64,000 bases of DNA from Bacteroidota bacterium (GTDB lineage Bacteria > Bacteroidota > Bacteroidia > UBA8524), in assembly GCA_016124735.1 (NCBI GenBank), contig WGMZ01000031.1, forward strand, positions 52,147 to 116,146. The letters are read 5' to 3'. The notes under the pieces were generated by a model. The model searched no databases, had not been told where the DNA came from, and saw only the letters and a program-made list of their open reading frames with translations. The translations under genes were made by a program, and so were the position numbers. This document shows positions 5,261 to 39,944 of this stretch, one piece after another; within the stretch, counting starts at the first letter, position 1, and each line of letters starts with the position of its first letter.

Positions 5261-5265
5261 AAATA

Positions 5266-5295
5266 CGCAACAAGGATGGACTTCGGTTCATCCTT
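5266..5295. terminator. Hairpin between convergent genes, a putative bidirectional terminator
   Basis: ACAAGGATGGACTTCGGTTCATCCTTGT forms a perfect stem with a short loop, located between the stop of the 1250..5260(+) CDS and the stop of the 5298..5552(-) CDS. Confidence 0.45.
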
Positions 5296-5297
5296 GT

Positions 5298-5552: not shown

Positions 5553-5594
5553 GCTGTCGCAATACTAAAGAAAAAGCCACATTGAATGTAACCT

Positions 5595-7432: not shown

Positions 7433-7462
7433 TAAGCTTCGGCTACAGGCCGGCCTACTTTT

Positions 7463-19531: not shown

Positions 19532-19552
19532 GTTTTGTAATCCAAATAATTG

Positions 19553-21053: not shown

Positions 21054-22813
21054 GAATATTTGAATAATAACCAGGCCAACACAATTCCTGAATAAATAAT
21101 TGTCAAAGGTAGTCCGAATCGAATAAAATCAATAAAGCGATAATTTCCGGGACCATATACCATCAAATTAGTCTGATATCCGACTGGGGTCATGAAACTG
21201 CAGGAGGCTCCAAACGCCATAGCCATAAAAACACCCGTTAACTCTATATTGGCATGTGTCGCCATGGAAAGTCCCAAAGGAAATATCACAGAAATTGCTG
21301 CTGCATTGGTTATAAACTGGGTTAATAATGTAGTGGCAAAATAAACGAGGACGATAATGCTTCCTTTACCCATGTTGGCACTCCATTCAGATAATCCCGA
21401 ACTCACCCAATCTGCTGCCCCAGAACCAATTAATGCCTGGCTTAACGCCATGGCACTGCCCAGAATGATCAACAAATCCAAAGAAATATTCTTTTTCATC
21501 TGGTCGTAATTGCTCATTTTGAATGCAAGGGTCAATCCAAGCATTAATAAAAGCGTCACGAATAAAGAGTAGAAACCAAATGGAAGTCCTGCAAGAATCA
21601 GGGTGCTACCCAGAAGGTAGAGGTTCTTTTTTCTTTTGGGTAATTCCACGGTCTGACTGAGCTCTGAAACAATGTACAAATCCTTACCCGACCGCGCTTT
21701 TGAGAGAAAAGTCTTTCCTGCAGAAATCAAAAGCAAATCGCCCTTGTCCAGAACTATTTCTCCCAATTTTCCTCTAAGTTTTTCACCATTCCGGTGAATA
21801 GCAATTACCGCCGCATCGAGATTTTCCCGAAATGCATATTCCTTTAAAGTCGCGCCAATCAAGCCCGAATTGGCCGGAATCACACTTTCCATTACCTGCA
21901 TCCCATCTCCGATATCTAATTCGGAATGTGATGGAATTGTAAGTCCCTGAATCTTCCTGACCAATTCCAACACTTTTTCGGGTTCGCCGGCAAAAAACAA
22001 GCGATCCTCTTTTTGAACTCGTTCGTCAGGAGAAACAGGGCTCATGGCTATTTTATTTCGGATAATTTCAATCAGAAAAATCCCATCCAAATTTCGTAGC
22101 CCAGCTTCCTGTATTGTTTTTCCAACCAAAGCCGCTCCGTTTTCCACCTTAGTTTCTACGAGATATTCTTTAAAATTCTCGGTGACTTCGCGGATTAAAT
22201 CCGAATTATCAGGAAGCAACTTCTTAAAAAACAGCAATATATACACAATGCCCCCGATACTTACCAGGACTCCCGGTATCAGAAAGTCCATAATACCAGG
22301 GCTAGCGATTCCAGATTCCTGAATAAAACCAATAAGTATCATATTGGTTGAGGTGCCCAATACCGTAATCATTCCTCCCAATATTGTGGCATAGGATAAA
22401 GGTATAAGTAATTTTGAAGGAGAAACAGAATTCTTCTTCCCCCACTGGTATACGTAGGGAATCATCATAGCGACAATGGGGGTATTATTCATCACCGAGG
22501 ACAAACCTGCCACGGTAATTCCCATGCGAATTAAAAACTGACGGGGACTTCTCGCTCCTTTGTATAATTTATCAAAAGTCCCAACCAGATTAAAATGGCT
22601 ATTGACTGCAGAAGTCAGTATGATCAGCAGGAAAATGGTGATGACAGAAGCATTTGAATAGCCGGCAAGGAACTCATTTACAGGGATGGTTCCGGTAACC
22701 AGTAAAATGGTCGCAGCCCCTCCAAAAACATAAGAAGCTCTCCACCGGTCAATTAATAGAGTGACGATGGTGAGCGCCAAAACGGATAATACGAGTATAC
22801 TATCGGTCGTCAT
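21050..22813 (-). CDS. SLC13/DASS-family anion transporter with two internal TrkA-C domains (likely sulfate uptake)
   Basis: The 587-aa protein has N- and C-terminal polytopic halves separated by a soluble region of about 170 aa with TrkA_C-like character. It is co-operonic with cysDNC and cysQ. Confidence 0.75.
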   Translation of the reverse strand: MTTDSILVLSVLALTIVTLLIDRWRASYVFGGAATILLVTGTIPVNEFLAGYSNASVITIFLLIILTSAVNSHFNLVGTFDKLYKGARSPRQFLIRMGITVAGLSSVMNNTPIVAMMIPYVYQWGKKNSVSPSKLLIPLSYATILGGMITVLGTSTNMILIGFIQESGIASPGIMDFLIPGVLVSIGGIVYILLFFKKLLPDNSDLIREVTENFKEYLVETKVENGAALVGKTIQEAGLRNLDGIFLIEIIRNKIAMSPVSPDERVQKEDRLFFAGEPEKVLELVRKIQGLTIPSHSELDIGDGMQVMESVIPANSGLIGATLKEYAFRENLDAAVIAIHRNGEKLRGKLGEIVLDKGDLLLISAGKTFLSKARSGKDLYIVSELSQTVELPKRKKNLYLLGSTLILAGLPFGFYSLFVTLLLMLGLTLAFKMSNYDQMKKNISLDLLIILGSAMALSQALIGSGAADWVSSGLSEWSANMGKGSIIVLVYFATTLLTQFITNAAAISVIFPLGLSMATHANIELTGVFMAMAFGASCSFMTPVGYQTNLMVYGPGNYRFIDFIRFGLPLTIIYSGIVLAWLLFKYS

Positions 22814-23600
22814 TTCCGGCTTTCACAATAAACCAGGGATTTAACAGGTTTTCCTTGTTATAAGTCAATTCAATACCCGTTTCCGGGTTAAAGACGCGGC
22901 ATCCACTTGCCTTTGCGATTGCATGGCCGGCGGCAGTATCCCATTCCATGGTGGGAGCGAAACGGGGATAAATCTGAGCCGTGCCTTCCGCCACCATACA
23001 TATTTTCAATGAGGATCCGATGGATATCCATTCTATCTCCCCATGTTTTATTCTTAATTCTTGAATAAAAGACTCTGTTTCCCCCGAAAGATGGGACCTG
23101 CTACCAACAACAGTGTAAGGTTCACCTAGTGGTTGAGCAGATATTTTCACTTTCGAGGCATCAATTTCTTCCCATCCCGATTCTGGGTGAACTTTTTCGG
23201 CTTTATAACTCATTCCCGCATCCCCACCCCAATAAAGTTTCTTTAGTACCGGAGCATATACGACACCCCATACGGGTGCGCCGTTTTCTATCAATGCGAT
23301 GTTAACCGTAAACTCTCCATTTCTTTTGATGAATTCCTTGGTACCATCCAGGGGGTCCACCATCCAAAATCTTTTCCATTCACTTCTGTTCTCGTAGCAA
23401 TCCCTGCTCGATTCTTCACTTAGGACAGGAATACCGGTATCAGACAGATATTTAATAATTACCTGGTGTGCCTGCTCATCTGCCTCGGTCAATGGGCTTT
23501 TATCCTCCTTAAGCTCCACTTTGAATTCGTTTTCGTACACATTTAAAATTTTCCTGCCGGCTGCTAAGGCTGCTTCTAATGCTTGACGAAATTCACTCAT
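22800..23600 (-). CDS. cysQ: 3'(2'),5'-bisphosphate nucleotidase (PAP phosphatase)
   Basis: The inositol-monophosphatase-family metal-binding motif WMVDPLDGTKEF is present and the length is 266 aa. It lies adjacent to the PAPS genes. Confidence 0.8.
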   Translation of the reverse strand: MSEFRQALEAALAAGRKILNVYENEFKVELKEDKSPLTEADEQAHQVIIKYLSDTGIPVLSEESSRDCYENRSEWKRFWMVDPLDGTKEFIKRNGEFTVNIALIENGAPVWGVVYAPVLKKLYWGGDAGMSYKAEKVHPESGWEEIDASKVKISAQPLGEPYTVVGSRSHLSGETESFIQELRIKHGEIEWISIGSSLKICMVAEGTAQIYPRFAPTMEWDTAAGHAIAKASGCRVFNPETGIELTYNKENLLNPWFIVKAGNDDR

Positions 23601-24513: not shown

Positions 24514-25470
24514 TTATTTATTATCGGATTTGTTCAATACCAGTTTAGGTAATACCAATTTTAAGGTAGTGAATAAAACCAGTAGTGACATTAGTATAAT
24601 CAGGCTGATTTGTAATTTGTTCACACTGTAAATCAGAATGAGATTGATTGTAACCTGAGCAATGCCATATATCACTGCCACCAGAACATGAGGCCAAGCC
24701 AATTCATTAGCCAGTACCTGGTAAACATGCAGGCGGTGTGCTTTAAAGATATTTTCACCTCGAATCAATCTTTGAATAATTGTCAAAATGGAATCGGCAC
24801 CATACACAGAAAAAAACAGAATATATTCCCAACTTCTCGTTTGAATCATGAGTAGCAGCATCATAAAGGCCAGGATATAAGCCATCCCTACACTTCCAAC
24901 ATCCCCAGCGAAGGTTTTCGCTTTTTTTCGGACATTAAATAGTGCGAACACCAAATTACCCACCAGTAAAACCCGAATTAAGTCCGGGTCAATGAATTGA
25001 ATATCCAGATTGATTAAATAGTAAGATGCCAGAATAGAGGTAGAATAGAAAACTGTGATTCCATTAATTCCATCCATAAAGTTAAAGGCGTTAATCCAAC
25101 CGATAACTAGTACATAGGCAAGAATCCAATAGTGCCAATGAAAAGAAAAGATATTCAACTGGAGCAGAATTAAGCTTACACTAATGACGTGCATCAATAT
25201 TCTCAAGCGCCGGGAAAGATCAAATCTATCATCCAAAAAACTGATGCCGGCGATAAGAACCAGTCCACCTACAAACCATGAATATTGCATTCCAAACAAG
25301 GCATACCACGCAATAACGGCGAGGGTAAAAACAATACCTCCACCACGAATCGTTATAGAACTATGTGAGCTTCTCTCATTTGGCTTATCAATGATGTTGA
25401 ACTTGTCAGCCAACTTGAAATATCCCAGGATCAGGAGTAATAAGAGAATAAAAATGAGGAAATAAGTCAT
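24514..25470 (-). CDS. Polyprenyl-phosphate N-acetylhexosamine-1-phosphate transferase (WecA/WbpL/MraY family), the initiating transferase
   Basis: The protein is 318 aa and polytopic. The family signature NAFNFMDGINGI and DD-containing loops are present. Confidence 0.8.
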   Translation of the reverse strand: MTYFLIFILLLLLILGYFKLADKFNIIDKPNERSSHSSITIRGGGIVFTLAVIAWYALFGMQYSWFVGGLVLIAGISFLDDRFDLSRRLRILMHVISVSLILLQLNIFSFHWHYWILAYVLVIGWINAFNFMDGINGITVFYSTSILASYYLINLDIQFIDPDLIRVLLVGNLVFALFNVRKKAKTFAGDVGSVGMAYILAFMMLLLMIQTRSWEYILFFSVYGADSILTIIQRLIRGENIFKAHRLHVYQVLANELAWPHVLVAVIYGIAQVTINLILIYSVNKLQISLIILMSLLVLFTTLKLVLPKLVLNKSDNK

Positions 25471-26396
25471 TTTGAATTAAAGCTTTGTATGGTTTCCTTC
25501 AGTCCGTCACGAGCCGCAATAGGCATTCGTTCCCAACCAAGAGCAAGTTTAATTTTATCATTCGACACCAAGTAACTTTCCGTCAATTTTTGCAGTCTGG
25601 CAGAATTGAGTGGCAATTTAAGCATGTCTCCAGCCTTAGCCATAAACTGAATTATGGAAGGTGAAATATTCCATATTTTCCCTTTCTTCCCTATACTTTC
25701 ACCAATTAATTTGACCAAATCGTTGGTGGATAAATCTTCATCATCTGCAACATTATATGTCCCAGCTGGAAAATCATCCATTTCGCAAATATTCAGAATT
25801 ACCTCAGTCAGATTTCCTACCGATAAATAGGATCTTCTGTTTTCGAATGCTCCGAGTGGATAGGGCATTCCATTTTTCAGGAAACTGTATAGCAGGTTGA
25901 GATTTCCTTTGTTCCCAGGCCCGTGAATCATGCAGGGACGTAAGATAATCAAGCGTTTTCCTGCTGGAAGTGTTTTTGATTGAAGATAACTTTCTGCCTC
26001 GCGTTTAGAAGCTCCGTAAGGATTATCCACTTCAAAAGCATCTGTTTCTTTGAGGATTCCTTTCACAGAGGAAGCAACCGCCTTTACTGAACTCATGAAT
26101 ATAAAATGAGTTGCTGTTTCATCTGCCATAAAAGCTTCGAACACTTTTTCTGTGAGTCCGACATTTATCAAGTTATAATCGGAAGCCAGACTTTTGTTCT
26201 TCAAATCATGAGCCTTTCCTGCCAGATGTATCCATGCTTTGGCATGAATATTTGCGGCATCCAATTCGTCCCAGGTAATGGTTGCCGGATAAGATTTACT
26301 CCTCGAAATACCCATGACTTTATGCCCGGTAGCTACAAGTTTTAGAGCCAGATTCTTACCAACAAATCCGCTGATGCCAGTTATGACTATGTTCAT
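25467..26396 (-). CDS. NAD-dependent nucleotide-sugar epimerase/dehydratase (short-chain dehydrogenase/reductase, SDR, fold)
   Basis: The N-terminus is MNIVITGISGFVGKNL, with a YxxxK-type catalytic region. The length is 309 aa. Confidence 0.7.
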   Translation of the reverse strand: MNIVITGISGFVGKNLALKLVATGHKVMGISRSKSYPATITWDELDAANIHAKAWIHLAGKAHDLKNKSLASDYNLINVGLTEKVFEAFMADETATHFIFMSSVKAVASSVKGILKETDAFEVDNPYGASKREAESYLQSKTLPAGKRLIILRPCMIHGPGNKGNLNLLYSFLKNGMPYPLGAFENRRSYLSVGNLTEVILNICEMDDFPAGTYNVADDEDLSTNDLVKLIGESIGKKGKIWNISPSIIQFMAKAGDMLKLPLNSARLQKLTESYLVSNDKIKLALGWERMPIAARDGLKETIQSFNSK

Positions 26397-27577
26397 GAAA
26401 GGTAACCTAAAATAGATGCTGCCAGCTTATCATTAATAGCTGCCCGTGTAAAATCCTGTTTAAACTGAATACGCTCTTCCTCGTGGTATGTGTAATTCTT
26501 CAACTGTTCTACCATGCTTTGAACATCTCCCGGATCAAAGAGGATAGAATTGGGAACATTCTTGCGGATAAACTCATTGGCAAAACCGCCAACGCCGGCT
26601 ATAATGGGAATGTTATACGCACCCATTTCAAATATTTTGGATGGCAAGACTTTTTTAAAGGCATCGTAGTCGTTCAAATGCAAAAAGAAAAAGTCTGTGT
26701 TTTTATAAATCTCAAAAAGTTCCGACCTTTTTACAGGTGGGTGCAGTTCCACGTTCTTGGGCTTGAATTCTGCCAGGGCCTCTTCCAATTTGGCTTTTGC
26801 TCCACCGTCACCAATAACCAGAAACTCATACTGCCCTTCAAGTGCCTTTGCTGCCTGAGGAATAATCTTATGAAGACCTTGCCCTTCCCCCATATTTCCA
26901 GCATAAACGATTTTATAGGGTGGCTTTGGGTTGCGGGTGCTGGACATTTCCATCTCCAGAAAGGCATCATCTATTCCATTGGGAAATTCCGAATATTTCG
27001 GACGAGTATACTTTGCGAAATAAGGTTTAAATCCTCCTGAAATCAGGTTGATATGTTTGGCGTCGGAAAACGTCTTTTTCTCCACATACTTTAAAATCGG
27101 CAGCACCATGCTCTTAATCAATTTGTTCTGCAAAACATCTTTCATGGTATCCACAAAAATGTCGCGTATATCGAGATAAAGGGGTGCTTTCTTTTTCCTG
27201 GCAATTTTATACCCCAGATAGGCTGTAAATAAGCGGCTGCTGGAGGCAAATACCAAATCATACTTTTGTTGACGGGCTATTTTTTGAGCCTGTGAATAGT
27301 AATTATAGAATGACTTGATTTGATCCATGAACCCACTTTGATGTGTCGGTATCGCGATTCGGTGAATCGTCATGTTTCCCCGCCTTTCCAACTCAGGAGC
27401 TTCACTTTGAAAAGTGCTGTACCTATTGGGTTGCGTACTGATAATATCTATCTGGTTGTCCTCTCCGAATTTACTTGCCAGGGTCTTGGCTAAGGGGCTG
27501 TTTCGAAAAGAGCCGGCACATAAATCCGGCTCAAAATAGAAGGTTAAATAAAGTATCCTTTTCGGCTTGGTTTCCAA
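26393..27577 (-). CDS. Glycosyltransferase family 4
   Basis: The protein has a GT-B fold. Its C-terminal domain carries the GT4 EX7E-like region (GEGQGL ... E). Confidence 0.7.
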   Translation of the reverse strand: METKPKRILYLTFYFEPDLCAGSFRNSPLAKTLASKFGEDNQIDIISTQPNRYSTFQSEAPELERRGNMTIHRIAIPTHQSGFMDQIKSFYNYYSQAQKIARQQKYDLVFASSSRLFTAYLGYKIARKKKAPLYLDIRDIFVDTMKDVLQNKLIKSMVLPILKYVEKKTFSDAKHINLISGGFKPYFAKYTRPKYSEFPNGIDDAFLEMEMSSTRNPKPPYKIVYAGNMGEGQGLHKIIPQAAKALEGQYEFLVIGDGGAKAKLEEALAEFKPKNVELHPPVKRSELFEIYKNTDFFFLHLNDYDAFKKVLPSKIFEMGAYNIPIIAGVGGFANEFIRKNVPNSILFDPGDVQSMVEQLKNYTYHEEERIQFKQDFTRAAINDKLAASILGYLS

Positions 27578-27590
27578 TTTTCTTTTTTAA

Positions 27591-29138
27591 TTAGTTGGTG
27601 ATGATGCTGATTTCGCTCACAAGCTCTTTGGAAAAGCTGATTCGTAATCCGAATGTGTCCTGCTCCTTATTGAAAAACGGTGAATATTTTCGACTCACCT
27701 TCTCCATTTTTTCCTGACCCAGGAATTTGAAATTTACCCGGCCGTTTACCAATGCTCCTTCATCCGTCATTTCAATCTGACAGGATGGATGAAACAGCAG
27801 ATTTAGCTCCCCCTGAGGGTTTGACCCTTTGAGCAAATCTACCAATCGCAACGCATTTGAATTCGCCCTAAATTGCCTTTCATGCACAATTCCGGCTTTT
27901 CTGTATCCGTCATGCCAGGCTATCAGTTCATTCGTAGTGTCTTGTGCTATATGGCATTTCGCCCTTCTTCCCACTCTGAATCCACTCCAAATTTCGGATG
28001 AATTCGCACCATTTACAGTTACAGTATTATGGTTTCTTGTAGACCGTTCCTCGCTTCGCGTGGATGAAATCTGGTATGTGGACGTGCCCGGGTCTACGAT
28101 AACCGGACTTTCATCTACGTACAGACAAAAACTCAAAGTATCTGCATGAGCATGCCCCGGTTGATACTCTGGCGTCAGATTTCCGCAGGTGGTATACAAG
28201 GTCATGTTTCCAGAATCCATCCTTCTGAAACCAGAATCCATTGCCTGATTTAAATTGGAAATTGGCAATTGGCAGGCCTGAAATCTGGAACGAATTTCAT
28301 CCGGTTCCGGCGCTATGCCATAGGCCGAGTCATTGAACAGAGGCCAATCCGACATGAATGTTAGCCAGTTCATAAATGCACCGGCCCTTTCTAAAGTATC
28401 CTTTAACTTTTGAATCAAATCCGGCTCTCCTGCCTGCTTATGCCGACAATAAATGTAAACATCAAGCAATCGGTCTGTGAGTATCAGATGATACATTGGA
28501 CTTCTTTCATAATGACATCCATCCTGATAAAATTGTTCCTCCAACTGCTCTTTCAAAATGCTGGCTGCATAATCCTGCCAGTTTGATTCTTTAAAAAACA
28601 GTCCGGCCATATAAAGTGCACAGGCATTTTCAAGAAGATGATTCGCTAACAGATGAAACTCAAAATTATCTCTGAGCCGGGTGGCATCGTCCCAAATTAC
28701 CTGTATATATTCCCGTTTATTGATGCCAAATTGCTCAATAAATTTAATCCAGTTGATGATGCGTAATGAGGTCGGATACGGCTGCTTTCCAATATTTAAG
28801 TTCGGATATTGGCGAACAAAATCATCCATCAATTTCTGACCCTGCTCTTCCTTGCATTCGGCCAGAATAGAGAAATAATTGAGATTATAGGTCCAAAGCA
28901 ATCCAAATTGCTGATTCTCCCAATTCACGGGAAAATGGATTGGAATACTAAGATTGATGAATTGCAATTCCTGAAATTCCCGCCGCTCCTTCTTTTCCCA
29001 CCAGTTAAATCGATCTATTTGGGTTGCTGGTGCCTGACTGTACCTGATTCGTTTGCCCGGAATACGAAGTAGTATCTGGTGATAAATCTGGGTGAACTTA
29101 AGATGGACTACCGTGCGAATAATCTGGCCCAATTTCAT
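27591..29138 (-). CDS. Heparinase II/III-like family protein without a signal peptide (cytoplasmic). It is a candidate polymer-modifying enzyme, possibly a uronyl C5-epimerase-type.
   Basis: The 515-aa protein has an N-terminal alpha/alpha-toroid-like region and a C-terminal beta-sandwich typical of Hepar_II_III-fold proteins. No N-terminal signal or lipobox is present (MKLGQIIRTVVHLKFTQIYHQ). Confidence 0.55.
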   Translation of the reverse strand: MKLGQIIRTVVHLKFTQIYHQILLRIPGKRIRYSQAPATQIDRFNWWEKKERREFQELQFINLSIPIHFPVNWENQQFGLLWTYNLNYFSILAECKEEQGQKLMDDFVRQYPNLNIGKQPYPTSLRIINWIKFIEQFGINKREYIQVIWDDATRLRDNFEFHLLANHLLENACALYMAGLFFKESNWQDYAASILKEQLEEQFYQDGCHYERSPMYHLILTDRLLDVYIYCRHKQAGEPDLIQKLKDTLERAGAFMNWLTFMSDWPLFNDSAYGIAPEPDEIRSRFQACQLPISNLNQAMDSGFRRMDSGNMTLYTTCGNLTPEYQPGHAHADTLSFCLYVDESPVIVDPGTSTYQISSTRSEERSTRNHNTVTVNGANSSEIWSGFRVGRRAKCHIAQDTTNELIAWHDGYRKAGIVHERQFRANSNALRLVDLLKGSNPQGELNLLFHPSCQIEMTDEGALVNGRVNFKFLGQEKMEKVSRKYSPFFNKEQDTFGLRISFSKELVSEISIITN

Positions 29139-30190
29139 GCCGACAAAAATGTTTTGATTTCATCCAAATTCCAGGTCATCATGCCGCTTGACAAGCCTTT
29201 TAATGCCCTTCCATGTGCAATGAGTTGAGTGGCATTCCCCTTGGTTTCAATGAACCTGATTTCTGCATAACGGAAGTATTTCTGGTATTTCGTCGGGAAA
29301 AAATCCCTTTTGAATTTTGCAATCAATTTCCAGTCTGTTCCATTCATGCTTGCATATACGCATGCGTGATCCTCATCATTCACAGGGCTAGGTTCCGTTA
29401 CCGTCGAAACAAAGTCTATTCCCCCCAAGCGAATAGCATGAAATGCGCTGCTGTTGATTTCGCACAAGGGATTTAATGATTTATTCGTTGGGTCGAAATG
29501 TTGAATCCAGTTTCTTTCTGAAGGAGAGTCCATTGGAACTATTATTCCGCCCGGCCCCGGGATCACCTCGACTGCACGATACTGCTGACTTCCTGTCCCT
29601 TCTTTGATCAGGGTAGCGAAATGGTCTCCTGTAAAATAGAGTCCCGATTCATCATCAGAATCTCCGGTTAATACCCAAAATCCATTTCGATACTCATCGT
29701 ATATGCAGCCGTGTACATGCCTGATTTCAGCAGCTTTGAATTTCCAAACCTCTCTCCAATTCACCCCATCGTTTGTGCCAAATACACGAACTTCTCCCCG
29801 ATCTGCGTTGGAAAAATATTCTCCAAAACAGGCAAATCCATCGGGTGAAATGCCCAAGTTCAACGGGCGTGAACCCTTGAAAGAGGAGAAAGTCCATTCT
29901 TCGGAAAAACCGGAATTGGAATAAATCACTTTTTTGTTTTCTACCCTCAGAAATCCATCAAGAAACGGGTAAATGCTATGTACTCCAAGACGAAGCACTC
30001 TCCGAAAAATTGCCCAATTCCCAAGGAGCTTCTCTTTCCAGGATTTGGCCCATTTGATTCCATTTTCCCTCCTACCGTTTTCATGGATCCAAACCAATCG
30101 GGTTGCCTGTGAAACTAAAATCGCTTTCCGCTCTGCATCGTAATAAAGCGGTTCATTGTTAACGTGGAAAGAAACCTTCGGTGTTTGCAT
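29135..30190 (-). CDS. Hypothetical protein (351 aa) of unknown function within the polysaccharide operon
   Basis: It shares a co-directional 4-bp overlap with the upstream gene. There is no signal peptide. It is beta-rich with Trp/Gly-rich segments and no family was recognised. Confidence 0.5.
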   Translation of the reverse strand: MQTPKVSFHVNNEPLYYDAERKAILVSQATRLVWIHENGRRENGIKWAKSWKEKLLGNWAIFRRVLRLGVHSIYPFLDGFLRVENKKVIYSNSGFSEEWTFSSFKGSRPLNLGISPDGFACFGEYFSNADRGEVRVFGTNDGVNWREVWKFKAAEIRHVHGCIYDEYRNGFWVLTGDSDDESGLYFTGDHFATLIKEGTGSQQYRAVEVIPGPGGIIVPMDSPSERNWIQHFDPTNKSLNPLCEINSSAFHAIRLGGIDFVSTVTEPSPVNDEDHACVYASMNGTDWKLIAKFKRDFFPTKYQKYFRYAEIRFIETKGNATQLIAHGRALKGLSSGMMTWNLDEIKTFLSA

Positions 30191-31128
30191 TATTTTTTAA
30201 GTTTCAATCTCCATGGATAGACCAGCATAAACGCCCAGGAAAGCATCTGGTGCATAGTCAAAGCGAGATGCTTATAGAAGGGCAATTTTACCGGATGGCG
30301 CTCGTAACCATTTTTAAAAATGAAACCATTCACTTTTTGAATCATGGCTATCTGGTAATCGCTAAACTCCTTTTCCCATTTGCGGGTATTCGATGTTAAT
30401 AAAGGACCAAAGGTTTCCTTTTTCCAGGAAACCTCATGTGCTGAAACCAGCTCCTTCGCACTTTCTGAAAAGGCCAGCATAGCCGGGTCATAATCTACTC
30501 CAACATGAACGCATATTTGCTTTAACGTTTCCTCTGCATTGCCAATCAAGGTTTCATAATTCAATTCCAGATAGGCTTCACCAAAGTATTTTTTTCCCAA
30601 ACGACGGCCTCTTGGCATTTGCGCCCGATAGATATAGGCATGAAGAAAAAAGGGCCAGGATTTCGACCAGTCTGCCTTGGTGCGACTCAGAACCACATCT
30701 CTTGGATCGCGCATCAGGTGGATGACTCTGGCATCCGGAAAAAAGTGCTTCAGTTCGCTGACAAAGTCCATATTTCGCGGGTCCTTATCGCCCAAATGAT
30801 GCTTCTGTTTTTCATCCAGGTAAGCCTTTGCCAATGCATTGAACCAGCTCATTTCAGATTCAAGTTCATCATCCGGCAAGTTGTCACTTATTTGGACTTC
30901 GCTAATTTTCGCCCTCTTAAAATCATCGTCTTCTCTTAAAAGAGATAGAATTTCCTCCCTCGTTAACCCATTAAAGGCCTGTTTAATGATATATTTTCTA
31001 AAAAAGTGCGTTTCCGGAAGAAAAGCAATATCCGGATGTGCATTCAGCATGCTTTGCAAAAGACTCGTCCCTGATCTTCCTACTCCAAAAATGAAAATTG
31101 GCTTATTTATTTTCTGCATACCAGGCAC
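30190..31128 (-). CDS. Sulfotransferase-family protein (PAPS-dependent)
   Basis: The 5'-PSB loop is FIFGVGRSGTSLL and the 3'-PB motif is LMRDPRDVVLSR. The length is 312 aa. Confidence 0.8.
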   Translation of the reverse strand: MPGMQKINKPIFIFGVGRSGTSLLQSMLNAHPDIAFLPETHFFRKYIIKQAFNGLTREEILSLLREDDDFKRAKISEVQISDNLPDDELESEMSWFNALAKAYLDEKQKHHLGDKDPRNMDFVSELKHFFPDARVIHLMRDPRDVVLSRTKADWSKSWPFFLHAYIYRAQMPRGRRLGKKYFGEAYLELNYETLIGNAEETLKQICVHVGVDYDPAMLAFSESAKELVSAHEVSWKKETFGPLLTSNTRKWEKEFSDYQIAMIQKVNGFIFKNGYERHPVKLPFYKHLALTMHQMLSWAFMLVYPWRLKLKK

Positions 31129-32944
31129 TTAAAAAGAGTAAACGGTAAATTTTAAATGTATTATTCGCCTTATTAGCAAAGTGATCGTTAATGATGTCCT
31201 GAAGTTTTTCGCGATTCAGTCGCTCAGTTAACCCCTTGTTATAAAAGTATTTCATGATTCGCTCCGGGCCAAGATTACCGATTTTTTTATCCAATGGTGG
31301 ATGAAACCCGGCTTTTCTGCGATCAACTAATTCCTTTGGGATTCTGGAAACAAGTACATCATACAAAGGAATTTTTCTTCTCTTCAGAGTAATGAGTCGG
31401 CTATCCGGTTCTGCCAGGGTATTCTCCAGAAGCTCAGGAGTGGCTAATGGAACCCTCAGTTCAATGCTTGCCTGCATACTGGATTTATCTGCCACCATGA
31501 AATTATGACTTAGAAAGCCCTGAACATCCACAAGCATCGCTTTTTTCACGGAGCTGAAATGCCGGTAAGGAGCATGAATAGCCTTTACATCATTTTGATA
31601 TCTCTTCAAGTCTTCTCCATTTGAAGTCAGGGCTTCAATTTCTGCATTGGAAAATGGAGTCAGCAATGCCTGATACGACTTAGAGAAAGAATTCTCTCTA
31701 AAAAAATTACTAAAACGTTCCAGCTTTTTAGAGAAGAACTTAGATCGTTTCATCAGTGGTTTTGCGAGAGGCCACACAAATCTGCCCAATTTGGTAACGA
31801 GTAAGAGCTGGTAACGCGGATAACCGGCAAAAATTTCATCTGCTCCCATTCCACTCAGCATGACCGTACACCCTCTTTTTCTTGCTTCAATGGAGATATG
31901 CTTCGATACAGAGAAGGTAAAATCTGCAATCGGCTCTTCGACCAAACGGGCCACTTCTTCCACTGAATTTAAAAATGCTTCCGGACTATCTTCTTCTACT
32001 GCCGGAGGTAACTCAATCAGATCGACCTTCAGCTCTTTTGCGATTTTTCTTCCATAATCCAGGTCGCTGGTAAATCCGGATTCCTTCACTTCCTCCTGAT
32101 TTTCGCTCAGTATCATCGTTGTGGTTTCCGTCTCCATGGAGGATAATATCAGGCTCGAGTCCACACCACCGCTGAAAAACAACCCAACAGGCACATCACT
32201 CAGCAAGTGATTTGAAATGCTCTTGTCAAGAACCTCATCCCAGGAAGTTGTTCTTTTCACAGCTTGAGCAGTCCAATATTCGGTAATGGATGGGTTCGAA
32301 ATTTCATTTTTCAAATCAAATCCAATCCAGTTTCCAGGAGCAACTTTATGTGTATGATTAAAACCGGTACGCGGTTCATATAAAAATCCAGCCGACAAGA
32401 AATCTGTCCAGACCTTCGGATCAATTTCCGGTTTCTTGCCCAAAACCTTCCAAATTGCTTTGAGCTCGGAAGCCCAAATCAATTGACCATCCCAGTAATA
32501 ATAATACAGAGGTTTAATTCCTAATTTATCCCGGCATAACCAAAGCTTCTGTTCAACTGTATCGTAAATTACAAAAGCGAACATGCCCTGGAAATCTTTG
32601 AATCCCTCGGTGCCGAATTCAATAAAGTATTTGAGCAGAACTTCTGTATCAGAACTTGTTCTGAAGTTGTGACCCTTTGCGGACAATATTTCCTTCAGCT
32701 GGAGAAAATTGTAAATCTCGCCGTTGAAAGTCAGGATATAGCGTTCATCTTCGGAGAAGAAGGGTTGATTGGATCGGGGATCCAAATCCAAAATGCTCAG
32801 ACGAACATGTCCTAATACAACATGGTGGTCGGCTGCCGTAAGCTCATGGTAATTCTGAAAATCCGGCCCCCGATGAAGGATGCTTTGAATTCCTGCCTCA
32901 ATATTCAGGCTATTATTAGAGATATATCCTACTACTCCGCACAT
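31103..32944 (-). CDS. Asparagine synthetase B-like glutamine amidotransferase (WbpS-like candidate uronate amidotransferase)
   Basis: The N-terminus MCGVVGY carries the Ntn nucleophile Cys2. A PP-loop SGGVDSS is present and the length is 613 aa. Confidence 0.85.
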   Translation of the reverse strand: MCGVVGYISNNSLNIEAGIQSILHRGPDFQNYHELTAADHHVVLGHVRLSILDLDPRSNQPFFSEDERYILTFNGEIYNFLQLKEILSAKGHNFRTSSDTEVLLKYFIEFGTEGFKDFQGMFAFVIYDTVEQKLWLCRDKLGIKPLYYYYWDGQLIWASELKAIWKVLGKKPEIDPKVWTDFLSAGFLYEPRTGFNHTHKVAPGNWIGFDLKNEISNPSITEYWTAQAVKRTTSWDEVLDKSISNHLLSDVPVGLFFSGGVDSSLILSSMETETTTMILSENQEEVKESGFTSDLDYGRKIAKELKVDLIELPPAVEEDSPEAFLNSVEEVARLVEEPIADFTFSVSKHISIEARKRGCTVMLSGMGADEIFAGYPRYQLLLVTKLGRFVWPLAKPLMKRSKFFSKKLERFSNFFRENSFSKSYQALLTPFSNAEIEALTSNGEDLKRYQNDVKAIHAPYRHFSSVKKAMLVDVQGFLSHNFMVADKSSMQASIELRVPLATPELLENTLAEPDSRLITLKRRKIPLYDVLVSRIPKELVDRRKAGFHPPLDKKIGNLGPERIMKYFYNKGLTERLNREKLQDIINDHFANKANNTFKIYRLLFLSAWYAENK

Positions 32945-34035
32945 TAGTTATTGCCTACTATTTCAATAAATTTTCGATTCCAATCGGTCGAATTAAACTC
33001 TTTCGATCTTTCGTATGATTGCTCACCCATTTCTTTCAACATGGCTTGATTGTTCACCAATTTCCGCATTACATCCGCCAGACCCTTATTATTTTCTATA
33101 GGCACCAAAAAGCCATTCCGACCCTCTTCAACCAATTCGTCGAGAAAGCGCCACCTTGTGGTCACAATTGGTAAGCCCGCTTCCATTGCTTCAATCAAAG
33201 CACCCGGATATCCTTCACCTTTCCAAAAAGATGGATACACAAAGGCATCGGCTTGCAGTAATTGTTTTCCAATTTCGGCATGTGGAAGTTCTCCAAGATA
33301 CTGGATGGTTGGTGTCTGCTCCAGCTGCCTGAGAATAGTATCATCGGTGCATTTTCCTATCACCTTTACAATAAAATCCGCCTCTTGCTTCGACAGAATC
33401 ATGCAAGCTTCGACCAAAACCTGTATCCCCTTTTCTTTTTTTACATGACCGACATAGACAAAGGTGGTTTTATCGGATGGCAATTTTTCTTCCTTTCGCA
33501 CTAATTTGTTTGCTGGCCGAGACGTTGGAAACCATTCAATATTCTCAACAGATCCTATGTTCTCTTTCCAAAAAGTGATTAAGCCCTTTGTTTGTAGCAG
33601 AATTCTATCAGAGGACCCTAGCCGTTTATAGTACCACTTATGCAGAGGTTTCGCCTCACAATAAAGGTCCAAGTCGCTGCCAAATAAGCGAATTTGAAAT
33701 TTTCTCTTAAAAATCCGTGCCATTGCAAAAAACACTATTCCCCATGGCCCCACCCTTTGTGGGTTTGCATGGAATGAAATAATCTGATAGAAAGGAATCG
33801 ATAGTAGTATTTGAAAGAAAAGTTTAATCTGCAAAAGCATATTGGCAAATCTGCCCGGCAACACCCTCAAGCTAATCAGACTAAAGTCCAGGTTACTTTT
33901 TTCTATGTCTTTGAGCAGAAGATCAAAAGACACCCGCGTTCCTCCCAGAGGAGGTGGCAATGGACCTATTAAAAGGATACGCTTTTTTAGCTCAGCCATT
34001 TTTCTTTCCAGGTTTGGAAAATATACAAATGCCAA
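32944..34035 (-). CDS. Glycosyltransferase family 4
   Basis: The C-terminal half of the GT-B fold carries FVYPSFWKGEGYPGALIEAMEAGLPIV (EX7E). Confidence 0.75.
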   Translation of the reverse strand: MAFVYFPNLERKMAELKKRILLIGPLPPPLGGTRVSFDLLLKDIEKSNLDFSLISLRVLPGRFANMLLQIKLFFQILLSIPFYQIISFHANPQRVGPWGIVFFAMARIFKRKFQIRLFGSDLDLYCEAKPLHKWYYKRLGSSDRILLQTKGLITFWKENIGSVENIEWFPTSRPANKLVRKEEKLPSDKTTFVYVGHVKKEKGIQVLVEACMILSKQEADFIVKVIGKCTDDTILRQLEQTPTIQYLGELPHAEIGKQLLQADAFVYPSFWKGEGYPGALIEAMEAGLPIVTTRWRFLDELVEEGRNGFLVPIENNKGLADVMRKLVNNQAMLKEMGEQSYERSKEFNSTDWNRKFIEIVGNN

Positions 34036-35888
34036 AGTTTTCGTTCACTGAGATTTTCACCCGCAAGAAAGCGATCACGGTAATGGATAATCTCGGGAAC
34101 ATTAAAATAGGCAGAATCCAATTTCTCCTCATTTATCACATCCATAAGCGTGGCCTTCAATGGCCCTCTCAACCATTCTGCGAGAGGAACAACAAATCCT
34201 TGCTTTGGCTTATCAATCTGTTTCTTATCGATCAAATCCCAGACAATTCTTTTGAGCAGATATTTTCCAGTTTGTTCATTTATCTTGAGATGATTACTTA
34301 GAGCAAAGGATTCCTCAATTATCCGGTAATCGAGTAGCGGCTCCCGTCCTTCGATGGAGAACCACATGGTTGAACGATCTACCTTGGTCATAATTTGATC
34401 CGGCAAATGTGTTCGGACATCCGTGAAGAGCATATCGGCCAGTGGATTTCCTGAACGAAGGACATTTTTAAATCGTCCAGGCTCGTCGCCTTCGATATGC
34501 ACCCATTTATTAATTTCTTCGTCCGAAATATATTTCGAGATTCCCCGCAGAATATCTACAATGTCTTTTTGTTTCAGAAGACTTTTAATTTTCCTGATTC
34601 TACCCAGCGGATTTCGTTTTCCCACCAATTTTTCCGCAACTGAATCAGGCATTAGCAGCGCCACTTCGCAACCCAGGATGTAAATTAAACGAAGCGGGGA
34701 ATTACTCATTTTATGAATCTTGAGCGCCCATTTGTGTTTATCGTACCCACCAAAAATTTCATCACCTCCATCAGCAGAAAGGACTACCTTCACTTTTTCA
34801 CTTGCCAGTTCACTAACCATCATGGTTGGTATTGCACTTGGATCACCAAATGGTTCATCAAACAGAAATGGAATATCCTGCAAGTATCTCAAGGCATCCT
34901 CTATGGCACAAACACGACTTGAATGCGTCGTTCCGAAATGGGCAGCGATTTTTTTTGCATCATCTGACTCATCAATTTTTTTATCCTGAAACCCTATGGT
35001 AAATGTTTTAAGGTCTTCCCTCTTTTCTGAGAGTTTTCCCACCAATAAGGTGCTATCATATCCACCACTTAAAAATACTCCAACAGGCACATCCGCAATC
35101 ATCCTGTAGTTGAATGCTGAATCAAATAATTGATTAAAAGTCTTTACTCCTTTTGATTCATCATGTATCGCATGTTTTTTAAGTTCTGACAGCGCATTTT
35201 CTTTGAAATGCCAGTATTCAGTGTCATTCGTTTCGAAACCGTTTAAGTTCAATTCGAGGTAATGCCCGGGAGAAATTTTATGAATTCCTTTATATATACA
35301 GAGATGTCCCGGAACATACCCGAATTGCATGAAATCTTTAATGGCCCGAGGATTCAATACCGGCTTGAATTCCGGGTGACCAAAAAAAGTTTTTAATTCT
35401 GAGCCAAAATAGAAATTCCCCTCATTCCATCCATAATACAACGGCTTAACCCCCACCCTGTCGCGAACAAAGAACATTTTACCTTTCACCTTATCTAACA
35501 AGGCAAATGCAAACATTCCATTCAGATGATGGACAAAATCAATCCCATAAGATCCATACAAGGCCAACAATACTTCCGTATCAGAATTTGATTGAAACGG
35601 GTATTTCGCTTCTTTCAGGAATTCATCTTTAAGTTCCTGATAATTGTAAATCTCTCCATTGAAAACAATTACCACCGATTTATCGTGGTTATACATAGGT
35701 TGGTTGGCCACTTCAGACAAGTCGATTATCGAAAGGCGTTTATGAACCAATCCTATGTGATGATTTCCGACAGTCTCAATTTGAATCCCCGTGCTATCCG
35801 GACCGCGGTAGTCAATGGCTTTTCCCATCGCTTCCATGGTAGATTCTGTGACAATTGACTTACTAAGTAATCCTGAAAAGCCGCACAT
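33987..35888 (-). CDS. Asparagine synthetase B-like glutamine amidotransferase (second copy)
   Basis: The N-terminus MCGFSGL carries Cys2. A PP-loop SGGYDST is present and the length is 633 aa. The gene overlaps the downstream GT4 by 49 bp. Confidence 0.85.
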   Translation of the reverse strand: MCGFSGLLSKSIVTESTMEAMGKAIDYRGPDSTGIQIETVGNHHIGLVHKRLSIIDLSEVANQPMYNHDKSVVIVFNGEIYNYQELKDEFLKEAKYPFQSNSDTEVLLALYGSYGIDFVHHLNGMFAFALLDKVKGKMFFVRDRVGVKPLYYGWNEGNFYFGSELKTFFGHPEFKPVLNPRAIKDFMQFGYVPGHLCIYKGIHKISPGHYLELNLNGFETNDTEYWHFKENALSELKKHAIHDESKGVKTFNQLFDSAFNYRMIADVPVGVFLSGGYDSTLLVGKLSEKREDLKTFTIGFQDKKIDESDDAKKIAAHFGTTHSSRVCAIEDALRYLQDIPFLFDEPFGDPSAIPTMMVSELASEKVKVVLSADGGDEIFGGYDKHKWALKIHKMSNSPLRLIYILGCEVALLMPDSVAEKLVGKRNPLGRIRKIKSLLKQKDIVDILRGISKYISDEEINKWVHIEGDEPGRFKNVLRSGNPLADMLFTDVRTHLPDQIMTKVDRSTMWFSIEGREPLLDYRIIEESFALSNHLKINEQTGKYLLKRIVWDLIDKKQIDKPKQGFVVPLAEWLRGPLKATLMDVINEEKLDSAYFNVPEIIHYRDRFLAGENLSERKLWHLYIFQTWKEKWLS

Positions 35889-35944
35889 ATAAGTTAATTA
35901 TTGAATTCGGTTTTGTTTGTTATCTTTTGCTTTGATTGAAAAAA

Positions 35945-37081
35945 TTATAACCCTGCCCGTTTAATTACTTCGAATAAATCTTGAGCAGCCAGGGATTCAT
36001 GGTAATAATATCCTCTTTCGATGCGCTCCTTTTCCATTAGCTGCCTGTCCTCCTCAAGAGTTAATTCCATTGCATTTGCAAGGGCATGGAAATCATCCAC
36101 CTGAACGAGTCTTCCATATTTTCCGTTCTCCAGAATTTCTGTTGGCCCGGTTTTGCAAGCAGTGCTCACAACAGGAACTCCTGTTGCCAAAGCTTGAATC
36201 AATACATTTGGAAGTCCCTCATAACGGGATGACAATACAAAAAGGTCTGCCTTGTGCAGATAAGGCAAAGGGTTAGAAACATAGCCCTTGATTGTGACAT
36301 ATTCTTCTAAACGCAATTCGTGGATAATTTTTATTATCTGAAGGTAATAAGCATCCTCCTTATTGTATTCTCCAAGTATGGTGAGGTGAATATTCTTAAA
36401 TTTATTTCTAAGAAGGTCCAGACTTTTAAGCAACATATCGAAGCCCTTTTGAAAATCCATCCGACCAATCGCCACTATATTCTTTTCCGCCTTTGGGAGT
36501 CCTTCCTTTACAGTTTCCTGCATAAGTATTTTGAAATCCTCTCCTATGACAGGATTTCTAACAAGCAGGACTCTATCTTTTTTCAATGAATAGAAAGATG
36601 CTATCTCTTGCACCATTTCTTCGGAAACAGAAATGATTCCCGAATAAAAACGGAATAAAATTCTTGCAGCAAAAATATGCACCCGCACACTGAATCGAGC
36701 GCTTTCCCAAGCTTGTTTGGGCGCAATAGCCTCCCTGAAAAATATCGGAATCGAACTTCCAGAAAAAATTTTCGCCAAAGCAATGACATTTCCTGCATTG
36801 TGGAGCGAGGTAATGACACAATCAAATTTCTTCAATTTTAGAAATTTGAACCAATCCGGAAGGGTTTTAAGAATGTTGCTGCGCTTTAAACGAAGTACCT
36901 CAAACTTATCCGACAGTTCGGTTTTAAGAGCTCCTCCTTCCTGGCCAATAACCAGACTTACCCGGTAATGTTCCGACAGGATATTTGCGTACTTTATCAG
37001 GTTCTTTTCTGCCCCACCTCCCGCCATTCTCGGCAGAAATATGGCGATACGTCCTGTGTTCATTCTATGATTCATTCGCAA
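35945..37081 (-). CDS. Glycosyltransferase family 4
   Basis: The protein has a GT-B fold with C-terminal LSSRYEGLPNVLIQALATGVPVV (EX7E region). The true start may be an internal Met. Confidence 0.75.
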   Translation of the reverse strand: MRMNHRMNTGRIAIFLPRMAGGGAEKNLIKYANILSEHYRVSLVIGQEGGALKTELSDKFEVLRLKRSNILKTLPDWFKFLKLKKFDCVITSLHNAGNVIALAKIFSGSSIPIFFREAIAPKQAWESARFSVRVHIFAARILFRFYSGIISVSEEMVQEIASFYSLKKDRVLLVRNPVIGEDFKILMQETVKEGLPKAEKNIVAIGRMDFQKGFDMLLKSLDLLRNKFKNIHLTILGEYNKEDAYYLQIIKIIHELRLEEYVTIKGYVSNPLPYLHKADLFVLSSRYEGLPNVLIQALATGVPVVSTACKTGPTEILENGKYGRLVQVDDFHALANAMELTLEEDRQLMEKERIERGYYYHESLAAQDLFEVIKRAGL

Positions 37082-37115: not shown

Positions 37116-38297
37116 TCATTTTGGGTCGATGTCGACACTCTTGTGATTAAGCCTGTAATTTCCGTATAGTAAGATCGGCAACATGATCGTTGTGAAATTA
37201 AAACTCAATCCAGACGCAATAATCAATACCAGACTAAGATTAAAAATACCCGATATATATTTACGAAGCACAAAAATTGAAAGAATCAATCCAATGATTC
37301 CCCCTCTGTACAAAGTATCAACCCAAAAGGTATCTCCCAAAAATATACCGTCAGGTTGTTGAAAACCATATCCAATCCATGGATTCGATTCAATACTGCG
37401 AATCGTTTCGTAATTCAACAAATCATGATTGGAAGCATCATACCTTGAAGAATATCCTTTTGAAATCAAATCAGCAAATCCACTGTACCCCGCATTTTCC
37501 AAAATTGAACTGAAAATTGGACCTATAAAAATAGCTGCAACCAAACCCACCCAAGGTAAAATAAGAAACGCCCGAGTTCCCTTTCCAACCAGTCTGTAAT
37601 AACTGTAAAGGAGCAATAAAATGAGTCCTATATAATACGCTTTGGAAAGTGTAAAAATTCCTAAAACAGCAGCGGCACCAAACCATCGCCATTTCTTCAA
37701 GCTGGCAAAGAAAAATGCCGTATAAAGGGAAAAGGCTGACAAATAAAGTGGAGTAAAGAAAACTCCGGTTTTTCGAGTGATCGTGCCATACCAATCCAGA
37801 GAATCTGATAAGTTAACACTCCTCGCATCTGAGAAATAATATTCTTTCAATAGCTCCACCGATTCCTTTGGATAGAATTCCTGATACAATACGGCCAAGC
37901 AATTCAGTACTACCATTATCTTAGAAAATCTTTCAAGGACAGGTAAGATAATATCTGATTGGTTTTCGTAGTAAAATAAAAAAACAAGAAAGGCTACATG
38001 TCCCAGTATTGGGATGTATGGAATTTTAGCAAAACCCGTTAAAGAGGAAAACAGGTACAATACAAACAAGCATATATATAGAAATTGTCCGGTTTGAAGC
38101 CGTTTTCGTTCTAAGATTTGCCATAATAAAATGAAAGGGAAAATGACATAGTAATTTGAAATAGCCAGATCTGATATCTTATACGGAGGTGCACCCAGAA
38201 TAATGCAAAGAATTAATGCAAGGCTAGAAATCCGATTAAAACGATAAAGGATTATACTGTAAATGGAGAGAACAAAAACAAAAATGTTAACCAGCAC
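37116..38297 (-). CDS. O-antigen polymerase/ligase-like polytopic membrane protein (Wzy-type candidate)
   Basis: The 393-aa protein has about 10 TM helices and a larger periplasmic loop near the C-terminal third. It sits in a Wzx/Wzy-dependent locus context. Confidence 0.55.
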   Translation of the reverse strand: MLVNIFVFVLSIYSIILYRFNRISSLALILCIILGAPPYKISDLAISNYYVIFPFILLWQILERKRLQTGQFLYICLFVLYLFSSLTGFAKIPYIPILGHVAFLVFLFYYENQSDIILPVLERFSKIMVVLNCLAVLYQEFYPKESVELLKEYYFSDARSVNLSDSLDWYGTITRKTGVFFTPLYLSAFSLYTAFFFASLKKWRWFGAAAVLGIFTLSKAYYIGLILLLLYSYYRLVGKGTRAFLILPWVGLVAAIFIGPIFSSILENAGYSGFADLISKGYSSRYDASNHDLLNYETIRSIESNPWIGYGFQQPDGIFLGDTFWVDTLYRGGIIGLILSIFVLRKYISGIFNLSLVLIIASGLSFNFTTIMLPILLYGNYRLNHKSVDIDPK

Positions 38298-39943: not shown

Positions 39944-39944
39944 C

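Follow-up and report, generated by a model that had tools for sequence, protein, structure and literature searches.

Related Enzymes and the Locus under Study

Heparinase III, a member of polysaccharide lyase (PL) family PL12 with structures from Pedobacter heparinus (4MMH) and Bacteroides (4FNV and 5JMD), is encoded in a degradative locus. Dermatan-sulfate epimerase 1 (DSE; PDB 6HZN) is a Golgi-lumenal enzyme that acts on polymer; every catalytic residue of this structure is shared by heparinase II, and "minute changes" have been proposed as the switch from lyase to epimerase (PMC8006597). Glce and Bermanella RED65_08024 represent another type of C5-epimerase, and the defining domain of RED65_08024 and its relatives is pfam06662 (PMC3068255). 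AglQ/Agl32 of Halobacterium and VpsJ of Vibrio cholerae are candidate lipid-level epimerases that act after a uronate has been transferred to a lipid-linked glycan. Agl32 converts glucuronic acid (GlcA) to iduronic acid, and its loss cuts glycan sulfation to <1% (PMC12624080), epimerization thus being a prerequisite for sulfation. VpsJ has been proposed to convert N-acetylmannosaminuronic acid (ManNAcA) to N-acetyl-L-gulosaminuronic acid (L-GulNAcA) on a lipid-linked intermediate, after a WecB/WecC/glycosyltransferase module (PMC13463779). In a capsule locus of Vibrio vulnificus that is needed for serum resistance, the pfam07940 protein VV0358 is required for capsule production (PMC6037467). 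The present study concerns a 64,000-nucleotide stretch of contig WGMZ01000031.1 (the window) from a marine Bacteroidetes bacterium, in which three adjacent minus-strand open reading frames (ORFs) encode a sulfotransferase of 312 residues (30190-31128; Pfam Sulfotransfer_3), an uncharacterized β-propeller protein of 351 residues (29135-30190; PROP), and a heparinase II/III-fold protein of 515 residues and COG5360 type (27591-29138; HEPAR).

The sulfotransferase, PROP, and HEPAR constitute a widely conserved, sometimes fused module. This module, together with the GT4 glycosyltransferase encoded directly downstream, and the PROP family itself seem not to have been described in the literature searched. 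We propose, at slightly less than an even chance, that the three proteins and the GT4 would form a cytoplasmic tailoring unit of a Wzx/Wzy capsule pathway, which would act on the repeat linked to undecaprenyl diphosphate (Und-PP) before flipping, by C5 epimerization and then sulfation, with PROP as a hub.

HEPAR differs from each of the described enzymes. It is ~130-190 residues shorter than heparinase III, lacks a signal peptide, and is encoded beside a GT4 gene in a Wzx/Wzy operon devoted to biosynthesis and not to degradation. It has no detectable sequence similarity to DSE, and the functional likeness that we propose is by analogy; in contrast to the Golgi-lumenal enzyme, HEPAR would be located in the cytoplasm, where its substrate is presumably a lipid-linked oligosaccharide. 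With Glce and RED65_08024 the likeness lies in the proposed epimerization of uronate at C5 during biosynthesis. The wecB-GT4 context of HEPAR is similar to the position of VpsJ after its WecB/WecC/glycosyltransferase module. Agl32 and VpsJ were considered as HEPAR-fold proteins and rejected, being single-domain (α/α)6 barrels that resemble cellobiose 2-epimerase. No propeller or sulfotransferase partner has been reported for VV0358, which was compared with HEPAR by description.

Fold and Active Site of HEPAR

Both heparinase II/III domain models exceed their gathering scores in HEPAR: Hepar_II_III_C (PF07940) matches at 2e-44 and 152 bits (cut-off 24) and Hepar_II_III_N (PF16889) at 7e-16 and 58.9 bits (cut-off 22). 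One metaclust homologue carries the label COG5360. The score against the NCBIfam HepC equivalog, 41 bits, is far under the cut-off of 700. When the PDB was searched with the HEPAR family profile, heparinase III was found at 1.6e-20, with a sequence identity of 17-19%. The structure of HEPAR was modeled with high confidence, and its predicted fold is an (α/α)6 toroid followed by a β-supersandwich, which is common to DSE and the PL8, PL12, and PL21 lyases. In the comparison table, heparinase III stands at 25.9 and 25.4, the lyases of PL15, PL17, PL35, and PL39 at about 22, heparinase II at 19.5, human DSE at 19.1 (422 aligned residues), and PL33 at 18.5. The HEPAR family therefore belongs to the heparinase II/III superfamily and is closest to PL12.

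The initial annotation had likened HEPAR to RED65_08024 and Glce. This likeness did not hold because HEPAR has no match to PF06662, even at E<=10, and Glce is absent from the top 60 of the comparison. The corresponding explanation, in which HEPAR would be a D-glucuronyl C5-epimerase of the Glce type that acts on a heparosan- or glycosaminoglycan (GAG)-like polymer ahead of heparan-type O-sulfation, could draw on the Ugd-like gene and the sulfotransferase within the operon and on the logic of epimerization followed by sulfation that is common with GAG synthesis. It is contradicted at the family level, and we regard it as very improbable.

In the HMMER alignment, residues N166, Y216, and H329 of HEPAR correspond to positions 216, 270, and 400 of the 4MMH chain. 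A uniform offset of 24 converts these to Asn240, Tyr294, and His424, the catalytic residues of heparinase III, which provide the neutralizer and the base and acid (PMC12088678). All three are invariant in 98 HEPAR homologues, as are H167, H217, H331, Y355, H370, and N371. HEPAR thus has the catalytic residues of PL12; it does not have the secreted character and degradative setting of that family, its neighbors being the sulfotransferase, GT4s, Wzx, and Wza/Wzc. His205, Tyr261, and Tyr473 of DSE, together with its metal ligands His452, Glu470, and Asn481, may have counterparts among the invariant H167, Y216, Y355, H329-x-H331, and H370-N371, which are plausible candidates. HEPAR has a conserved proton-abstraction site of the lyase/epimerase type. 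The initial annotation had set lyase-type catalytic residues against an epimerase role; N166, Y216, and H329 are present but not discriminating because DSE has the same residues as heparinase II.

Cellular Location and the Question of a Lyase

Export signals were sought with a Kyte-Doolittle hydropathy heuristic and a search for Cys in the first 35 residues, rather than with SignalP. By these measures the sulfotransferase, PROP, and HEPAR have neither a hydrophobic N-terminal h-region nor an early Cys, and hydropathy medians indicate that both features are absent throughout the families (98 HEPAR and 73 PROP homologues). The three proteins are accordingly predicted to be cytoplasmic. An earlier view that HEPAR, having no signal peptide or lipobox, is unlikely to be a secreted lyase was borne out, and the locus is biosynthetic and not degradative.

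HEPAR could still be a genuine intracellular poly- or oligosaccharide lyase that trims or proofreads lipid-linked intermediates or that makes an unsaturated terminal residue. Its closest solved relatives, by both sequence and fold, are PL12 heparinases III, the Asn neutralizer, Tyr, and His of heparinase III are all invariant, and a lyase role was suggested by the authors of the V. vulnificus study (PMC6037467). However, the lack of an export signal does not fit a periplasmic clearing role like that of AlgL, β-elimination on a lipid-linked repeat would strip off the distal sugars and turn the intermediate into an unsaturated dead end, and the strict pairing with GT4 in thousands of biosynthetic loci is ill-suited to a destructive activity. 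We consider a lyase improbable.

Genomic Context of the HEPAR Family

The HEPAR family comprises >6,400 clusters at E<=1e-3 among 8,000 candidates scored. Its context was examined in 80 metagenome loci that were retrieved with the family alignment and in which ORFs were annotated by HMMs and by phmmer searches with the window proteins. A homologue of the window GT4 lies directly downstream of HEPAR in 44 of the 55 loci with enough sequence, and in five more wecB is inserted between the two. A wecB gene occurs in 28 of the 80 loci, and genes for UDP-ManNAc(A) are often close by. The order HEPAR, GT4, short-chain dehydrogenase/reductase (SDR), and WecA-like protein at the end of the series is repeated in seven loci (L004, L071, L078, L080, L088, L093, and L113).

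A similar arrangement occurs in three other loci. The chromosomal galF-gnd O-antigen locus of Escherichia coli AR_0077 (L151) has the order wecB-wecC-...-HEPAR-GT4. The IncC plasmid pCRE10.2 (L005) carries HEPAR-GT4 in an IS26-flanked polysaccharide cluster that is on conjugative plasmids shared with Enterobacter. A Parabacteroides locus (L006) also has the HEPAR-GT4 arrangement; a gene annotated as "bi-domain-containing oxidoreductase" is directly upstream of its HEPAR. An attempt to tie HEPAR to a known glycan through E. coli AR_0077 failed: wecB and wecC are present, and ManNAcA occurs in no classical E. coli O antigen. Plasmids encoding the Shigella sonnei form I antigen, which contains N-acetyl-L-altrosaminuronic acid (L-AltNAcA), were not among the tblastn hits. 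Because of the synteny with GT4 and wecB, the occurrence in O-antigen loci, and the capsule requirement in V. vulnificus, HEPAR is a biosynthetic, glycosyltransferase-coupled enzyme of uronate-containing glycans and not a catabolic lyase.

Linkage of the Three Genes

The coordinates and lengths given for the ORFs in the initial annotation were confirmed. In the window, the sulfotransferase and PROP genes overlap in the sequence TAATG, stop codon with start codon, and the PROP and HEPAR genes overlap in ATGA, and a 13-nt gap precedes the downstream GT4 gene. The three genes are, as judged from these junctions, translationally coupled. Proteins identical to HEPAR and PROP have been deposited from a Bacteroidetes metagenome-assembled genome (MAG) as GC180_09265 and GC180_09270.

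The context of PROP was analyzed in 64 genome loci with PROP homologues from many phyla, divided into a close clade (at least ~35% identity) and a distant clade (24-34%). In the close clade, a sulfotransferase gene adjoins PROP in ~27 of the 28 assessable loci, mostly upstream and overlapping, and HEPAR is located <=1.5 kb downstream of PROP in ~19 of these loci. The sulfotransferase-PROP pair of this clade spans Bacteroidota, Planctomycetota, Marinimicrobia, Bacillota, Gammaproteobacteria, and Deinococcota. The order sulfotransferase, PROP, HEPAR, (wecB), and GT4 is observed in Flavobacteriia, Cyclobacteriaceae, Marinimicrobia, Planctomycetota, Halobacillus, and Chromatiaceae. In a Cyclobacteriaceae MAG (L004/L010, ~1470-9850), three large secreted sulfatases are encoded directly upstream of the PROP-sulfotransferase-HEPAR genes; all three have Sulfatase and CBM_35_2 domains and two of the three have the Por_Secre_tail domain of the type IX secretion system, so that a sulfated-capsule locus is paired here with extracellular sulfatases.

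The module also exists as fused polypeptides. Three proteins (P0224, P0302, and P0305) are sulfotransferase-PROP fusions, of which P0224 is 43% identical to the window sulfotransferase. Two (P0298 and P0344) are PROP-HEPAR fusions with 57% identity to one another along their entire length; P0298 has 29% identity to the window PROP and 34% to the window HEPAR, and a GT4 gene is next downstream. Three more (P0203, P0257, and P0284) join GT4 to PROP. The fusions make PROP a physical partner of tailoring transferases, HEPAR, and GT4 enzymes. The suggestion in the initial annotation that the 351-residue protein could be a novel partner proved well founded because of the cross-phylum conserved synteny and the natural fusions.

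A simpler explanation is that the three proteins are independent tailoring enzymes, adjacent only through the compactness of the operon, with neither a complex nor an ordered pathway. Overlaps of stop and start codons are frequent across this operon, HEPAR and GT4 are several kb away and on the opposite strand in Planctomycetota, and PROP is found in only eight of the 80 HEPAR loci. The adjacency of sulfotransferase and PROP has nevertheless been held over at least six phyla while other genes vary, and the separate fusions, three of sulfotransferase to PROP and two of PROP to HEPAR, also argue against independence, which is therefore decidedly unlikely.

In the distant clade, the gene upstream of PROP is variable. 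It encodes an Antibiotic_NAT (AAC(3)-like) acetyltransferase in L051, L053, L054, L056, L060, and L062; a Pfam-confirmed carbamoyltransferase in L041 and L057; a CE4 deacetylase with DUF3473 in L036 and L042; WecB in L037, L038, L043, L044, L045, and L058; a hexapeptide acetyltransferase in L040; and an FkbM methyltransferase in L050. In L059 and L069 an ORF of 574-578 residues has the size and spacing of the carbamoyltransferase gene. A GT4 gene is often downstream of PROP in this clade. PROP appears to associate with glycan-tailoring enzymes in general. In three loci (L053, L056, and L061) PROP is followed by an ORF of 713-715 residues, the L053 copy of which is a bi-domain oxidoreductase (ADH_zinc_N and GFO_IDH_MocA). 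In L152 and L001, a CapK-like gene (435-442 residues, with a weak AMP-binding match) is two genes upstream of PROP or of the PROP-HEPAR fusion; it brings to mind VpsH, by which glycine is attached to L-GulNAcA in the V. cholerae polysaccharide VPS (PMC13463779).

The β-Propeller Family

PROP is a β-propeller of a family that has no Pfam model. Searches with the 351-residue sequence gave no hit in Pfam, even at E<=10, in NCBIfam, or among the sequences of the PDB, in agreement with its initial description as unclassifiable. Neither sequence nor structure gives a significant match to the named propeller families (BNR/sialidase, WD40, PQQ, and polysaccharide-lyase propellers). A word-index search gave 81 relatives and the impression of a tiny family; this was overturned by an exhaustive profile scan, in which the family has 3,303 cluster representatives, 1,197 of them at E<=1e-30.

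Fifteen positions of PROP are invariant: R64, R67, G106, G123, Y125, F151, H158, H160, G176, D177, Q202, R205, D221, N227, and E266. Judged from the predicted strands, they would lie at the starts of inner strands and in B-C loops, which would place them on the face that usually binds ligand in propellers. PROP is most likely an acceptor-binding or scaffold hub, a role that we favor because its partners have the acceptor, and not the donor, in common and because six arginines are invariant or nearly so.

PROP could instead be an enzyme, such as a metal-dependent hydrolase, an epimerase, or an eliminase, that acts on the same sugar and creates or exposes a nucleophile for whichever transferase is encoded upstream, be it a sulfo-, acetyl-, or carbamoyltransferase. 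Many of the invariant residues are His, Asp, Glu, Tyr, or Arg (among them H158-x-H160, D177, D221, E266, and Y125), with a placement like that in propeller enzymes, and virginiamycin B lyase and muconate-lactonizing enzyme score as well as WD40 scaffolds do. PROP also occurs without a sulfotransferase or HEPAR, beside wecB and GT4, and is found next to Antibiotic_NAT, carbamoyltransferase, or CE4 genes. However, no specific structural or sequence relative backs any chemistry, fusion to three enzyme classes is more typical of an adaptor, and the invariant Arg residues fit binding of Und-PP or uronate equally well. We regard a catalytic PROP as unlikely, though deserving of attention.

The Sulfotransferase

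The 312-residue protein matches Pfam Sulfotransfer_3 (PF13469) at 1e-34 and 120.9 bits and Sulfotransfer_1 at 7e-11. Its translation contains both motifs for binding of 3'-phosphoadenosine 5'-phosphosulfate (PAPS), namely the 5'-PSB motif GVGRSGTS (residues 15-22) and the 3'-PB motif RDPRDVVLS (residues 140-148). The domain match and the two motifs identify it as a PAPS-dependent member of Sulfotransfer_3. Among solved structures, it is closest to the OLS/CurM sulfotransferase domain 4gox (3e-11) and to the tyrosylprotein sulfotransferases TPST1/2 (1e-7); heparan-sulfate-type 2-O, 3-O, and 6-O sulfotransferases and NDST were not among its best PDB relatives. From its sequence the protein is classed as a generic Sulfotransfer_3 enzyme. 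The heparan-type O-sulfation envisaged at first does not agree with this result, since the enzyme is nearest to CurM/OLS domains and TPSTs.

Proposed Pathway

In the pathway that we propose, the GT4 would install an (N-acetyl)hexuronic acid from UDP-ManNAcA, UDP-GlcA, or the UDP derivative of N-acetylglucosaminuronic acid (UDP-GlcNAcA), each of which would be made by enzymes of the operon. HEPAR would then remove the C5 proton of the uronate by means of the conserved Asn/His neutralizer, Tyr, and His and would re-protonate it from the opposite face, in the manner of DSE, to yield an L-configured uronate. The sulfotransferase would sulfate this product with PAPS supplied by CysDN and CysC, and CysQ would clear the by-product 3'-phosphoadenosine 5'-phosphate (PAP). 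The most likely role of PROP is to bind the anionic acceptor on its lipid and to keep the tailoring enzymes there.

Inversion at C5 is preferred over cleavage because a cytoplasmic eliminase would destroy the intermediate. A terminal uronate would have no good leaving group at C4, and abstraction followed by re-protonation would therefore be the productive outcome. Our estimate that HEPAR is a uronate C5-epimerase is close to, but below, an even chance; beyond this and the smaller share given above to a lyase, the remaining probability falls on other or non-catalytic roles of HEPAR.

Several observations weigh against this pathway. The nearest sequence relatives of HEPAR are true PL12 lyases, and every lyase catalytic residue is kept, so that HEPAR may have lyase activity. 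The family-profile search of the PDB found neither DSE nor Glce, which counts against the comparison with DSE, and HEPAR has no match to DUF4962, even at E<=10. Close gene spacing is frequent in operons of this type. Distant PROP loci have other upstream partners and often lack HEPAR, and the role of PROP is therefore not tied to epimerization. The O type of E. coli AR_0077 is non-classical, and no carrier organism with a known polysaccharide structure was found. In full-text literature searches, for which the slash in "II/III" was unsearchable, the genetic requirement in V. vulnificus was the only published function for heparinase-fold proteins of biosynthetic loci, and no experiment showing epimerase activity was found for any member of the HEPAR family.

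A more general form of the proposal is that heparinase-fold proteins of the COG5360 type in capsule and O-antigen loci would be DSE-like C5-epimerases of lipid-linked uronates and that PROP would couple the reversible epimerization to an irreversible "locking" step, which would be sulfation in this operon and, in other loci, acetylation, carbamoylation, or glycosylation. This extension is speculative, and we think it rather doubtful.

Organization of the Capsule Operon

The operon that contains the module is on the minus strand and extends from ~48.7 kb to ~14.6 kb of the window; the gene order was obtained from Pfam and NCBIfam scans, and all genes given below are on the minus strand. It begins with Wza (47857-48732) and Wzc (45448-47847), followed by a 177-residue ORF without a family match (44688-45221). 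A TviB-like UDP-GlcNAc 6-dehydrogenase (43411-44703; NF011729 TviB, 560 bits, and Pfam UDPG_MGDP_dh) and an SDR 4-epimerase-like protein (42342-43367; Pfam Epimerase) would together supply N-acetylhexosaminuronic acid (HexNAcA) precursors. They are followed by the Wzx flippase (41095-42345) and by a group of three proteins (38386-41108), a CobD/HisC-like pyridoxal phosphate enzyme, a HAD phosphatase that is a weak match to the EcbF/BcbF capsule phosphatase, and an ATP-grasp ligase. This group looks like a system in which a small amine is made and then amide-linked to a uronate carboxyl, and it presumably resembles the Cj1435-Cj1438 system of Campylobacter jejuni. A 393-residue ORF without a Pfam match (37116-38297) probably encodes Wzy.

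The region from 31103 to 37081 encodes, in order, a GT4, an AsnB-like amidotransferase, a second GT4, and a second AsnB-like amidotransferase. The two AsnB-like glutamine amidotransferases (31103-32944 and 33987-35888; Pfam Asn_synthase and GATase_6/7, TIGR03108, and TIGR01536) thus lie around a GT4 and directly upstream of the sulfotransferase gene, which suggests uronamide formation on two residues. Downstream of the module are the WcaI/TuaC-like GT4 (26393-27577; Pfam Glycos_transf_1, with the NCBIfam WcaI-family and TuaC matches both weak), an SDR of 309 residues (25467-26396; Pfam Epimerase), and a WecA/WbpL-type initiating phosphoglycosyltransferase of 318 residues (24514-25470; Pfam Glycos_transf_4).

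The region from 18266 to 23600 encodes CysQ, a DASS/CitMHS anion transporter, CysC (adenylyl sulfate kinase), CysD, and CysN (Pfam Inositol_P, CitMHS/Na_sulph_symp, APS_kinase, PAPS_reduct, and GTP_EFTU), and CysQ scores above the cut-off of TIGR01331. With the transporter, which has TrkA_C domains, this set would provide private sulfate uptake, PAPS synthesis, and PAP removal for the sulfotransferase. The operon continues with WecB, a UDP-GlcNAc 2-epimerase (17125-18273; TIGR00236 wecB, 328 bits versus a cut-off of 210), a Ugd/TuaD-like UDP-sugar 6-dehydrogenase (15709-17055; TuaD, 556 bits), and a GFO/IDH/MocA oxidoreductase (14607-15614); a 514-residue membrane protein of the LIC_10190 family follows at 13039-14583.

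The window locus is therefore a Wzx/Wzy-type capsule cluster centered on N-acetylated hexuronic acids and their amides, with its own PAPS supply. Much of the enzymatic setting described by the initial annotation is in place, because genes for uronate formation, for PAPS supply (CysDN, CysC, CysQ, and the anion transporter), and for uronate amidation are all present around the module. The UDP-GlcA-producing Ugd, which had been described as being beside HEPAR, is in the same operon but 10.5 kb downstream, and the TviB-like gene is 12 kb upstream. Similarly, the comparison with heparan/dermatan-type GAG maturation holds as an analogy of enzyme logic, but the product would be a Wza/Wzc/Wzx capsule of N-acetylated hexuronic acids and amides and not heparosan.

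Implications

Genes for heparinase II/III-fold proteins are routinely annotated as "alginate lyase" or "heparinase" in thousands of capsule and O-antigen loci. If these proteins are C5-epimerases, they would account for the L-configured (amino)uronic acids that many surface polysaccharides contain, and they would be the bacterial relatives of dermatan-sulfate epimerase that have so far been missing. They would also be enzymes for making epimerized, sulfated GAG-like polymers. Several cultured carriers have been identified, among them Christiangramia sediminicola SM2212, Muriicola marianensis, Gaetbulibacter aestuarii JCM 17455, Halobacillus massiliensis, and E. coli AR_0077, and the hypothesis is therefore directly testable. 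PROP, for which fusions or pairings with four enzyme classes are seen, is a new target for studying how tailoring enzymes are organized on lipid-linked intermediates. If the DSE-like activity of the family and the hub role of PROP are both true, the module would be a bacterial counterpart of the animal epimerase-sulfotransferase complexes and a candidate evolutionary source of the animal dermatan-sulfate epimerases.

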